64,000 nt of DNA, taken from assembly GCF_013167455.1 (NCBI RefSeq), contig NZ_CP038328.1; one strand, given 5' to 3'. This stretch comes from Escherichia coli O157:H7. Its GTDB lineage: Bacteria > Pseudomonadota > Gammaproteobacteria > Enterobacterales > Enterobacteriaceae. Position numbers: made by a program. Positions 41,101 to 44,100 of this stretch are shown here, one piece after another. Every line of letters starts with the position of its first letter. The stretch's first letter is position 1.

Positions 41101-44100
41101 GGGTGATGAGTTTGCATTCCAGTATCGTCTGTACTGGAGTGCGCAACCGCCTGTTCATTGCCCATTAGCGCGCGTTATGGCGACGCGTACCGGCATGGGC
41201 GGTTTCCCGGAAGGTTGGGCACCAGGTGAACACTATCCCGAAAAATGGGCGCGTCGTTTTGCCGTCGATTTCGTTGGTGGTGATCTGAAAGCTGCCGCAC
41301 CAAAAGGCATTGAGCCGGTGATTACGCTTTCCAGTGGGGAAGCGAAGCAAATCGAAATTCTCTATATTGAACCCATTGATGGTTATCGTATTCAGTTTGA
41401 CTGGTATCCGACTTCGGACTCCACTGATCCGGTCGATATGCGGATGTATCTGCGTTGTCAGGGCGACGCTATCAGTGAAACATGGCTGTATCAGTATTTC
41501 CCGCCAGCGCCGGATAAACGTCAGTATGTTGACGACCGCGTGATGAGTTAATCGTTTTTTCTTCGGCACCTTCTTCGGGAGGTGCCGTCTGGTTAAACAC
41601 GATCCCGCTCGCATTTTTCCCTAAGTTAAATGAGTAATCTGATGGTGTGTATTTCAGATACACCTTGTCAGCCACTAACAGGGAGTGCGTATGTTTCCAG
41701 AATATCGAGATTTAATATCCCGTCTGAAAAACGAAAATCCTCGCTTTATGTCCTTGTTCGATAAACACAATAAACTTGATCATGAAATTGCCAGAAAGGA
41801 AGGTTCCGACGATCGAGGGTACAATGCGGAAGTGGTCCGCATGAAAAAACAAAAGCTACAGTTAAAAGATGAGATGCTCAAAATCCTGCAGCATGAGAGC
41901 GTCAAAGAGGTGTAAACTTTCCTAAGCCGCCAGCCAGGCGGCTTTTTTAACAACTGCATGGATTGACTGGAGATAAGATGACTGAAACGATAAAAGTAAG
42001 CGAATCACTTGAATTACATGCTGTTGCAGAAAATCACGTCACTCCTCTTTATCAGTTAATCTGTAAAAATAAAACCTGGTTACAGCAGTCGCTAAACTGG
42101 CCGCAGTTCGTTCAGATTGAAGAGGACACGCGAAAAACGGTGCAGGGTAATGTGATGTTGCATCAACGCGGCTATGCCAAAATGTTCATGATTTTCAAAG
42201 AAGATGAACTTATCGGCGTTATCTCGTTTAATCGTATTGAACCACTGAATAAAACCGCTGAAATCGGCTACTGACTGGACGAATCTCATCAGGGGCAGGG
42301 GATCATTTCTCAGGCGCTGCAGGCACTGATTCATCATTACGCTCAGTCTGGTGAACTTAGACGCTTCGTGATCAAATGTCGGGTGGACAATCCGCAAAGC
42401 AACCAGGTCGCTTTGCGCAATGGTTTTATCCTTGAAGGTTGCCTGAAACAGGCTGAGTTCCTGAATGATGCCTATGATGATGTGAACTTATACGCGCGTA
42501 TTATCGATTCATAATAACCCTGCCAGCGGCGTTCGCGTAATGCGCTCCTCGCCGTTAATGACTTTTGGACCACGGACATGAACCGTGTCGCCATCAAAGG
42601 CTTCAACGACGGCGTGGTCGGTTAACTCCACATGGTTTTCAATTATCACCGCACCTGTAATACGGCTCTCACCTTGTATTACAACGTGCTCGTCGAGCAG
42701 AATCGGTCCGCCACGTACCACGGCATTTCCGCCAATCAAGACATGATGTTTTAACACACAATTACCTTCCACAATGGCATATTCCGCCACCTGCGAACTG
42801 TAATGAATCGTTGGAATGGCATCTTCTTCTATGCCAGCTTTCACCTGCGCGTGACCGTAGACTTTAGCGCAATCGCATAGCCAGACGTTGTTCTCTTCAT
42901 TACCTTCAATACTGGCAAAATCAAAAACTTCGGCGCGATGTTCAATAAAAGCATACCGGATGACGGCATCGCCATAAATTTGTGCCTGGTGGACAATACG
43001 CGAGGCGCTAACCCTTGCGCGATCATAAATTTGGAGCAGGAGTTGATGGTCGGGCGTTAAGCCTTGTGCGGCGACGATCATAGAATGTTGATCAATTAAG
43101 GCGTGACCAAATATTCTACATTGCCCGCAAACCAGTGAGTCATGAATGGTGACACTGTCACTTATATATGCACCCTGGTTGATTTCACTATTATCGATCC
43201 AGACATTATCCGTTGCGTAAACCTCTCCCCACAGTACGCTGGTGCCGGTGATGCGCGTATTACCGGAAATCACCGTTCCGCCGAACGCAATAGCATTCTG
43301 GTCGTAAATCCAGCAATTTCCTTCCTGTGCTAACACCGTTTCGCGATCGATCCAGCCGCCAGCGGTTCCTGCTATCACATCGTTAAAATCGCTAATGGCG
43401 ATAATCTGCCGTAATAACACATTTTTTTTAGTGCCATCTTCCTGATAACTAAAGGCTCGCTGTTCTTCACTTAGACGATATTTGCGCATAGCGTTTTCCC
43501 ACAGGTGACTTACTATAACCGTAGCAAATTCTGCGGCTCTGGCTATGCTCGAGAAAATTCCATAAAATGCATTTCAAATATACTTTATAAATTAAACAAA
43601 ATGAGTAAGAAGATGCAGAGCGATAAAGTGCTCAATTTGCCGGCAGGCTACTTTGGTATTGTGTTGGGGACGATAGGGATGGGATTTGCCTGGCGCTATG
43701 CCAGCCAGGTTTGGCAGGTCAGCCACTGGTTAGGGGATGGGCTGGTGATTCTGGCGATGATCATCTGGGGATTATTGACTAGCGCATTTATTACCCGACT
43801 CATACGCTTTCCGCATAGCGTGCTGGCGGAAGTTCGCCATCCAGTGCTGAGCAGTTTTGTGAGTTTGTTTCCTGCAACGACGATGCTGGTGGCGATTGGT
43901 TTTGTTCCGTGGTTTCGCCCACTGGCGGTGTGCCTGTTCAGTTTTGGTGTCGTGGTTCAGTTGGCTTATGCCGCCTGGCAAACTGCGGGATTATGGCGCG
44001 GATCTCACCCTGAAGAAGCTACTACGCCTGGACTGTATCTGCCGACAGTTGCCAACAACTTTATCAGCGCAATGGCCTGTGGTGCGTTGGGCTACACCGA

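Follow-up and report, generated by a model that had tools for sequence, protein, structure and literature searches.

Two pairs of facing genes in a 64,000-nucleotide stretch of DNA from Escherichia coli O157:H7 (the window) have interlocked ends, with ydbJ/hslJ overlapping by 4 nt and rimL/ydcK by 6 nt. Both overlaps are instances of an ordinary, conserved arrangement that has already been published. They are probably old tail-to-tail junctions at which the stop codons have drifted and the mRNA 3' ends fall inside the partner gene, with the overlap being a by-product and not a regulatory device. Chance is the wrong frame for such a feature, which is deterministic and one case of a common class. 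For example, convergent overlaps in E. coli K-12 number 58 by one count (Lillo and Krakauer, 2007, PMC2174442) and 75 pairs by another (Huvet and Stumpf, 2014, PMC4161906). Their modal length in E. coli is 4 bp, the possible tetramers are four in number (CTAA, TTAA, CTAG and TTAG), and a rho-independent terminator is predicted for only 20% of the genes involved (PMC2174442). The window has 11 convergent junctions, three of which overlap while a fourth abuts at 0 nt, and those other than the two pairs considered here are equally tight (median gap of about 35 nt, one at 0 nt).

The ydbJ/hslJ junction is composed of the following features.

4248..4514, plus strand: ydbJ coding sequence, 88 aa, a DUF333 lipoprotein (Pfam DUF333, E 1e-13), with its TAA stop at 4512-4514
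4511..4933, minus strand: hslJ coding sequence, 140 aa, with a META domain (Pfam META, E 7e-25) and a TAA stop that is the reverse complement of 4511-4513
4511..4514, both strands: TTAA, the 4-nt ydbJ/hslJ coding overlap with interdigitated stop codons, as read from the sequence

The original prediction placed a 4-nt overlap at 4511-4514, and both its coordinates and its geometry are correct, with the TTAA shared between the two genes. Both genes are also annotated. As judged from reading frames and annotation, the genes of this pair, and likewise those of rimL/ydcK, lie on opposite strands with their 3' ends facing, and in both pairs the coding regions including stops share at least one base. 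A 41-mer that spans the TTAA is found in 5410 of 5426 complete E. coli genomes. Beyond E. coli, a ydbJ homologue is present in 47/47 species loci and the two genes are convergent in all 47 species sampled, with a spacing of -7, -4, 0, +2 to +13, +45, +74, +86 or +124 nt.

The second junction, together with the state of its rimL frame, is described by five features.

41978..42514, plus strand: reading frame of rimL, here a pseudogene (from its translation and the PGAP note 'internal stop')
42272..42274, plus strand: internal TGA stop of rimL at codon 99 (W99, TGG>TGA; the K-12 codon is TGG, Trp)
42509..43489, minus strand: ydcK coding sequence, 326 aa, left-handed beta-helix/YdcK family, with a TGA stop that is the reverse complement of 42509-42511
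42509..42514, both strands: TCATAA, the codon-aligned 6-nt overlap of the rimL frame and ydcK, consisting of two stop codons back to back
42515..42517, plus strand: second in-frame TAA, which is the rimL stop of K-12-type strains (9-nt overlap)

Here the prediction had been that the stop codons overlap by 6 nt. The coding regions do share the 6 nt at 42509-42514, but the stop codons themselves do not overlap, and each sits over the last sense codon of the partner. The same rimL/ydcK ends are given by RefSeq/PGAP for identical O157:H7 genomes. The terminal rimL TAA at 42512-42514 derives from a CAA>TAA change, which in ydcK is silent (Leu, TTG>TTA), and the ancestral rimL TAA is the one at 42515-42517. 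Specifically, the 6-nt TCATAA overlap occurs in 1924 of 5426 E. coli genomes (35%) and the 9-nt overlap of the CAATAA allele in 3364 of the same 5426 (62%), with an overlap of 4 nt in Salmonella and again 9 nt in Citrobacter. The convergent order of the two genes is kept in Salmonella, Citrobacter and Escherichia. The variation in both rimL/ydcK overlap length and ydbJ/hslJ spacing speaks for drift over a fixed design.

A further correction concerns rimL, which had been treated as an intact gene. Its codon 99 is an in-frame TGA, the annotation here lists it as a pseudogene, and what was called the rimL stop at the junction closes a broken frame in the O157:H7 strain. The other three partners, ydbJ, hslJ and ydcK, are intact as judged from Pfam matches and conserved homologues, and rimL itself is intact in K-12-type strains. 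Both junctions resemble the short convergent stop/stop pairs described previously (PMC2174442, PMC4161906) in having opposite strands, facing 3' ends, an overlap made up of stop codons (TTAA being one of those allowed) and terminators that have to sit in partner coding sequence. Unlike the modal 4-nt stop/stop class, rimL/ydcK overlaps by 6 nt here and by 9 nt in most E. coli genomes, and has one partner that is a pseudogene in this strain.

Overlap of the transcripts at their 3' ends, as the original prediction also had it, is supported for both pairs. A full-length mRNA must include its own stop codon, and overlapping coding ends therefore mean overlapping transcripts. Both rimL-ydcK and ydbJ-hslJ also belong to the 165 convergent 'excludons' that Sanmartin et al. 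(2025, PMC12288877) list for MG1655, these being observed in 50% or more of 58 transcriptomes. The likeness to that ExcludonFinder list extends to the very same two pairs, with overlapping 3' UTRs and a short intergenic distance, but the list is one for K-12, rimL is inactivated here, and mutual exclusion for both pairs is only putative. Additional evidence is provided by bicyclomycin (BCM)-sensitive plus-strand termination regions that are located inside or past the partner genes in K-12 MG1655 (Adams et al., 2021, PMC7815308, Supplementary file 2). The window equivalents of these regions are given here with the tracts and stem-loops that surround the junctions.

4171..4450, minus strand: C-rich, G-poor tract in hslJ read-through RNA (C/G up to 3.1), rut-like by composition and putatively so in function
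4455..4496, minus strand: 18-bp stem-loop in hslJ-sense RNA, 15-56 nt past the hslJ stop and antisense to ydbJ codons Pro70-Gly83
4531..4597, plus strand: stem-loop in ydbJ-sense RNA, in the hslJ 3' coding end and 17-83 nt past the ydbJ stop
5079, plus strand: window equivalent of MG1655 Rho region peak 1441889 (+), antisense to the ldhA 3' end and about 565 nt past the ydbJ stop
42595..42834, plus strand: C>G tract in rimL read-through RNA, antisense to ydcK (C/G 1.5-2.4), which contains position 42627

Position 42627 is the equivalent of MG1655 Rho region peak 1499587 (+), about 110 nt past rimL and antisense to ydcK. In these data, which have a coarse resolution of 800-nt windows, reads upstream/downstream of region 1499587 are 82/20 without BCM and 137/144 with BCM (Rho score 4.3, p 1.5e-8), and those of region 1441889 are 80/17 without and 77/69 with BCM (Rho score 4.2, p 1.5e-6) (PMC7815308). 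Note that an internal antisense promoter, and not ydbJ, could be the origin of the plus-strand RNA that extends to ldhA. The RNA downstream of three of the stops is C-rich and G-poor, as expected of Rho terminators, with maximal C/G ratios of 2.4 for rimL, 3.1 for hslJ and 1.85 for ydbJ; past ydcK the bias is weak (1.3-1.6). This agrees with Rho termination of post-stop and antisense RNA (PMC7815308) in both the BCM-sensitive regions antisense to ydcK and ldhA and the RNA composition. The minus-strand hslJ and ydcK transcripts differ from these plus-strand cases in that no minus-strand Rho region is reported at either junction in K-12, at the low resolution of the data. A curated K-12 Term-seq table likewise holds no discrete 3' ends within several hundred bases of either junction, and for these reasons we infer the 3' ends of hslJ and ydcK. 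The claim that there is no room for terminators thus survives only as a statement that intergenic DNA is lacking, as signals for 3'-end formation (Rho regions, C-rich tracts and the hslJ stem-loop) do lie inside partner coding sequence.

No canonical hairpin plus U-tract terminator is found downstream of the stop of any of the four genes, with the best hairpins within 120 nt of the four stops having only 2-3 T among the first 8 tail bases. A terminator consensus scan gave no match near 42509 (rimL/ydcK) and two plus-strand terminator-like matches at ydbJ/hslJ, both of which we rejected. One of these, 4486-4507, is a weak hairpin with a poor tail that precedes the ydbJ stop, within the end of that coding sequence, and the other, 4846-4864, is a 6-pair hairpin with the tail AATTTTGTCA that lies inside hslJ about 330 nt past the ydbJ stop. 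An Rfam search of the whole window showed no known RNA family at the junctions, the only matches being to MicC, RydC and sok elsewhere. The ydbJ-sense stem-loop at 4531-4597 has a dG of -23.5 (z -2.5; 4 of 200 shuffles as good), and its core at 4543-4587 a value of -18.6 (0.8 percentile). The equivalent RNA at rimL/ydcK is not notable, the 66 nt and 144 nt folded downstream of the two stops having z values of -0.3 and -1.1.

The stem-loop at 4455-4496 is very stable, and we regard it as a putative hslJ 3'-end hairpin formed by the last ydbJ codons. Its dG is -25.7 kcal/mol, a stability reached by 0 of 4264 background 45-mers, and its 71-nt context folds at -30.0 (z -3.3). Only 0.1% of synonymous recodings of ydbJ match this stability. 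The stem also favors one strand by about 8 kcal/mol (-25.7 for the hslJ-sense RNA versus -18.0 kcal/mol for the ydbJ-sense RNA), and no U-tract follows it. In regards to whether this hairpin is under selection, the comparative sequence evidence is mixed, and we do not claim proof. Across 46 distinct sequences, 85% of cells are paired versus 28-50% when the stem is slid, some double changes are present, and the stability of the hairpin exceeds that expected from codon choice in 34 of 47 species, which are not independent of each other. On the other side, RNAalifold does not recover the stem as a consensus, and synonymous entropy in the stem codons is not significantly reduced (0.67 versus 0.75, p 0.10). 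The retention of tail-to-tail order in every species sampled and the 34/47 result on hairpin stability run against a pure by-product view and leave room for selection on the arrangement.

The preferred reading of drifted tail-to-tail junctions would work as follows. Stop codons would have drifted until the coding regions interlocked (TTAA, TCATAA), and because there is no intergenic DNA, each mRNA 3' end would form inside the partner gene, leaving tens to hundreds of bases of complementarity between the two messages. The rimL RNA would run antisense into ydcK and the ydbJ RNA into hslJ/ldhA, with Rho likely halting both once the ribosome leaves at the stop codon. The BCM sensitivity behind this Rho step comes from K-12 and is assumed to hold in O157. 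The hslJ 3' end may be set at, or protected by, the stem-loop that lies 15-56 nt past its stop and lacks a U-tract; a strongly C-rich tract suited to Rho comes after it. For ydcK, where no structure stands out, termination inside rimL would be Rho-dependent or diffuse. The overlaps themselves would then have arisen from genome compaction and stop-codon drift and not from a dedicated regulatory device, with interference between the partners being a possible side effect and not a demonstrated function. Compact bacterial genomes often place 3'-end signals within the neighboring gene, and synonymous sites at gene ends can thus carry a second function, a point to bear in mind when genomes are designed with recoded or separated genes; otherwise these junctions mean little beyond bookkeeping.

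The same stem could alternatively serve as a collision-type bidirectional terminator, an explanation that we consider unlikely. In this model the 4455-4496 stem would pause polymerases moving in both directions, which would then be released without Rho by collisions both head-on and from behind, a mechanism that has been proposed for convergent pairs in E. coli. A non-intrinsic-looking hairpin between convergent genes is what the model features (Wang et al., bioRxiv 10.1101/2022.10.23.513370), and the 4455-4496 hairpin equals in strength the intergenic hairpins of the window's other convergent junctions, which also lack U-tracts. As far as the bidirectional terminators of Ju et al. (2019) are portrayed by Wang et al., ydbJ/hslJ resembles them in its strong U-tract-less hairpin and departs from them in that the hairpin lies within ydbJ and not in intergenic DNA, is markedly one-stranded and is passed by a plus-strand RNA that looks Rho-sensitive; rimL/ydcK has no comparable hairpin at all. 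For ydbJ, the stem falls 18 nt short of the end of the stop codon, and polymerases that stopped there would yield a non-stop mRNA, while translating ribosomes would melt the stem. Furthermore, the K-12 plus-strand RNA appears to extend hundreds of bases beyond the stem and to be Rho-sensitive there, the strand asymmetry favors a role on one strand, and ydbJ and hslJ are weakly expressed whereas the model is best for highly expressed pairs (bioRxiv 10.1101/2022.10.23.513370).

Somewhat less likely still is that the pairs are functional excludons, in which selection would keep the overlaps because transcribing one gene holds down the other, either by interference between RNA polymerases or by RNase III cutting the 3' duplex. 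Expression of ydbJ versus hslJ, and of rimL versus ydcK, would then be mutually exclusive. Both pairs are on the MG1655 list, where excludon pairs as a group exhibit higher synteny and less single-cell co-expression (PMC12288877), and the convergent order is conserved as described above for each pair. However, the RNA-seq criterion behind the list is nearly automatic for overlapping coding regions when both genes are expressed, and validation of double-stranded RNA with p19 was not feasible for convergent pairs. Overlap length has also been free to vary (4, 6 or 9 nt at rimL/ydcK; -7 to +124 at ydbJ/hslJ), the O157 lineage lost rimL by nonsense mutation and yet the ydcK frame and the junction are intact, and there is no known functional link between the partners. 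Very unlikely, finally, is that nothing happens in cells, with the partners expressed at different times or in different cells and no overlapping RNA formed: the lack of curated discrete K-12 3' ends suggests low expression and single-cell data suggest that excludon partners are rarely co-expressed, but calls of overlapping transcription units were made in 50% or more of the 58 bulk transcriptomes (bulk data that cannot settle co-expression in single cells), and plus-strand reads upstream of both Rho regions represent RNA antisense to the partner in LB.

More speculatively, the 4455-4496 stem might be a selected dual-use sequence that encodes the conserved YdbJ C-terminus and, on the opposite strand, forms the hslJ 3' hairpin, with conserved packing producing a reciprocal ydbJ/hslJ switch, and, relatedly, the loss of rimL in the O157 lineage might have altered antisense pressure on ydcK; jointly we hold these two readings to be unlikely. 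A candidate effect in which Rho polarity in the rimL pseudogene cuts read-through into ydcK was dropped, the C/G ratio being below 1 in the 240 nt after the internal stop. A literature search on rimL loss in O157 returned nothing relevant. The rimL nonsense mutation carried by the O157:H7 lineage is nevertheless the one strain-specific point at these junctions. The W99 TGG>TGA allele, a UGA-C stop that may be leaky, is carried by 294 of the 5426 complete E. coli genomes, those listed belonging to the O157 lineage, and the intact K-12 RimL matches the GNAT family Acetyltransf_3 (E 6e-23). RimL is the enzyme that turns ribosomal protein L12 into L7.

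Both convergent overlaps, ydbJ/hslJ and rimL/ydcK, are real, conserved and already catalogued. They are built from the following features:

4248-4514, plus strand: ydbJ, stop codon TAA at 4512-4514
4511-4933, minus strand: hslJ, stop codon TAA, read from tta at 4511-4513
4511-4514: TTAA, coding bases shared by ydbJ and hslJ
42509-43489, minus strand: ydcK, stop codon TGA, read from tca at 42509-42511
42512-42514, plus strand: TAA, terminal stop of the rimL frame
42509-42514: TCATAA, coding bases shared by rimL and ydcK

Since the stop codons are unambiguous, the overlaps are not an annotation artefact. 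The ydbJ/hslJ overlap is exactly as originally predicted. For rimL/ydcK the predicted 6-nt coding overlap also holds, but the two stop codons do not overlap each other as had been claimed; they are adjacent, each lying over the partner's last sense codon. The four gene names match the annotation of corresponding records, and the Pfam domains expected of the four proteins are all present (DUF333, META, LbH/YdcK solenoid and GNAT).

Such overlaps have been counted in E. coli K-12 as 58 convergent cases with a modal length of 4 bp, the possible 4-bp forms being limited to CTAA, TTAA, CTAG and TTAG (PMC2174442), and by another count as 75 convergent pairs (PMC4161906). The window has 11 convergent junctions, three of which overlap (ydbJ/hslJ, yncP/hokB and rimL/ydcK), while ydcY/ydcZ has a distance of 0 nt and seven others have gaps of 34-96 nt. 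Four of these gaps each contain one strong palindromic hairpin (-21 to -24 kcal/mol) that lacks a U-tract on both strands and resembles reported bidirectional terminators in look. The first two junctions listed here were absent from the original prediction:

34962-34984: yncP/hokB convergent overlap, 23 nt
59175/59176: ydcY/ydcZ convergent junction, no base between the stop codons
23569-23613: hairpin in the ynbD/azoR gap
32711-32755: hairpin in the aldA/gapC gap
50075-50119: hairpin in the rlhA/yncJ gap
58328-58372: hairpin in the patD/yncL gap

The 1.7 kb around the rimL/ydcK site is 100% identical to O157:H7 Sakai (RIMD 0509939) and strain 2017C-4109, and this region is found in 5412 of 5426 complete E. 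coli genomes; a 41-mer spanning the TTAA junction of ydbJ/hslJ is present in 5410 of them. When hslJ was scanned in one genome per species, ydbJ was its convergent neighbour at 47 of 47 loci, at distances of -7 (3 loci), -4 (14), 0 (1), +2 to +13 (25), and +45, +74, +86 and +124 (one locus each), indicating that tight packing is the rule and the exact overlap is not. Two contigs bearing hslJ sequence probably come from contaminated or mislabelled assemblies, namely a 413-nt 'Alkalicoccobacillus porphyridii' contig matching hslJ of E. coli at 100% identity and a 'Chryseobacterium sp. 18061' contig with an enterobacterial hslJ-ydbJ pair.

The rimL gene is flagged by PGAP as a pseudogene with an 'internal stop', which the original prediction missed. 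Specifically, codon 99 is an in-frame TGA (42272-42274) followed by C where K-12 has TGG (Trp). A 41-mer with this allele occurs in 294 of the 5426 genomes, the matches listed being O157-lineage strains, and our literature search found no paper on this nonsense allele of the O157 lineage. The mutation would be expected to lower or abolish L12-to-L7 acetylation in this lineage. In E. coli, UGA stops are leaky when the next base is C, and misreading by tRNA-Trp would give back the native residue; some RimL may still be made by read-through in this genome. The 240 nt of rimL 3' of the internal stop are not C-rich, and we thus see no reason for the nonsense mutation to alter read-through into ydcK.

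The terminal stop of rimL is also derived, with TCA TAA TAA in place of the K-12 TCA CAA TAA (Ser-Gln-stop, 9-nt overlap with ydcK), and the C>T change at 42512 that creates it is synonymous in ydcK (Leu, TTG>TTA). Within E. coli the length of the overlap varies between genomes and both forms are common, 6 nt (TAATAA) being found in 1924 genomes and 9 nt (CAATAA) in 3364. Outside E. coli the pair stays convergent and overlapping, by 4 nt (TTAA) in Salmonella enterica and by 9 nt in two Citrobacter and another Escherichia, indicating that the overlap is old and its length free to vary. This variable length, together with the loss of rimL in the O157 lineage while ydcK and the junction stay intact, speaks against the overlap itself being a tuned device.

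The reasoning that the messages must overlap at their 3' ends is right, and published support comes from ExcludonFinder, which places rimL-ydcK and ydbJ-hslJ among 165 convergent 'excludons' of MG1655, defined as RNA-seq transcription units overlapping in 50% or more of 58 transcriptomes (PMC12288877). A caveat of our own is that pairs with overlapping coding regions satisfy this criterion almost by default as soon as the two genes are both expressed. The same list includes trg-ydcI, rlhA-yncJ, patD-yncL and yncP-hokB from this window, and validation by p19 double-stranded RNA was not feasible for convergent pairs (PMC12288877). Mutual interference within either pair is possible.

That there is no room for terminators holds for intergenic DNA and not otherwise. 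Lillo & Krakauer had already made this point, noting that terminators of convergent overlapping pairs must sit in the partner's coding sequence, and rho-independent terminators were predicted for only 20% of such genes (PMC2174442). Near 42509 our consensus scan detected no terminator of the hairpin-plus-U-tract type, and at ydbJ/hslJ it gave two plus-strand matches. In regards to Rho, the bicyclomycin (BCM) data of Adams et al. 2021 contain two termination regions at the relevant MG1655 positions (PMC7815308, Supplementary file 2), which we transferred to the window by means of the MG1655 annotation:

4486-4507, plus strand: weak hairpin (consensus scan), 5' of the ydbJ stop
4846-4864, plus strand: 6-pair hairpin (consensus scan), within hslJ, ~330 nt past the ydbJ stop
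~5079, plus strand: Rho region MG1655 1441889 (+), antisense to ldhA, ~565 nt past the ydbJ stop (PMC7815308)
~42627, plus strand: Rho region MG1655 1499587 (+), antisense to ydcK, ~110 nt past the K-12 rimL stop (PMC7815308)

Upstream/downstream reads at 1499587 go from 82/20 without BCM to 137/144 with it (p 1.5e-8), and at 1441889, which sits past all of hslJ, from 80/17 to 77/69 (p 1.5e-6) (PMC7815308). In the paper's curated Term-seq table neither junction has a discrete 3' end or a minus-strand Rho region nearby (PMC7815308), so the ends of hslJ and ydcK are ones that we infer. RNA 3' of the stops is C-rich and G-poor, with C/G of up to 2.4 (rimL), 3.1 (hslJ) and 1.85 (ydbJ), and only 1.3-1.6 for ydcK. 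Rho prefers C-rich, G-poor RNA.

Folding revealed nothing notable at rimL/ydcK (z -0.3 and -1.1) and two stems at ydbJ/hslJ:

4496 down to 4455, minus strand: 18-bp hslJ-sense stem, 15-56 nt past the hslJ stop
4531-4597: second, weaker stem, past the ydbJ stop and within hslJ, z -2.5

The hslJ-sense stem has a stability of -25.7 kcal/mol, equalled by 0 of 4264 background 45-mers of the window, and its 71-nt context reaches -30.0 kcal/mol (z -3.3); no U-tract follows it. It is antisense to the ydbJ codons Pro-Asn-Gly-Lys-Arg-Cys...Leu-Ala-Ala-Gly, and just 0.1% of the synonymous alternatives to these codons yield a stem as stable. Read on the ydbJ strand the same DNA loses ~8 kcal/mol, since four of the pairs are G-U on the hslJ strand. 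In 34 of 47 species the homologous segment is more stable than its own recodings (z < -2), being strong in Escherichia and Citrobacter and weak in Klebsiella and Raoultella, and 85% of alignment cells are paired versus 28-50% with the partners slid. Counting against selection, these species are related and hence not independent, RNAalifold did not return the stem in its consensus, and synonymous variation is not significantly reduced in the stem codons relative to the rest of ydbJ (p 0.10). The stem is as strong as the single palindromic hairpins in the gaps of the other convergent junctions, and we interpret it as the 3'-end hairpin of hslJ, shifted into the coding sequence of ydbJ. There it could act as a pause or collision element, like those that Ju and Wang describe (bioRxiv 10.1101/2022.10.23.513370), or alternatively as a barrier to 3' exonucleases once Rho has terminated transcription further downstream.

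Elsewhere in the window three RNAs score above the Rfam gathering score:

309-429, plus strand: MicC
34483-34546, minus strand: RydC
35106-35257, minus strand: sok (hokB antitoxin RNA)

Identical or near-identical O157 records carry ompN (window 1-84) and ydcO (~46202-47375) as frameshifted pseudogenes. The K-12 feaRB-tynA-paa block is missing between ydbL and pdxI (~9800-15400), and its place is taken by two large ORFs, one for a beta-strand repeat protein and one for an autotransporter beta-barrel protein, that are apparently the ydbA region.
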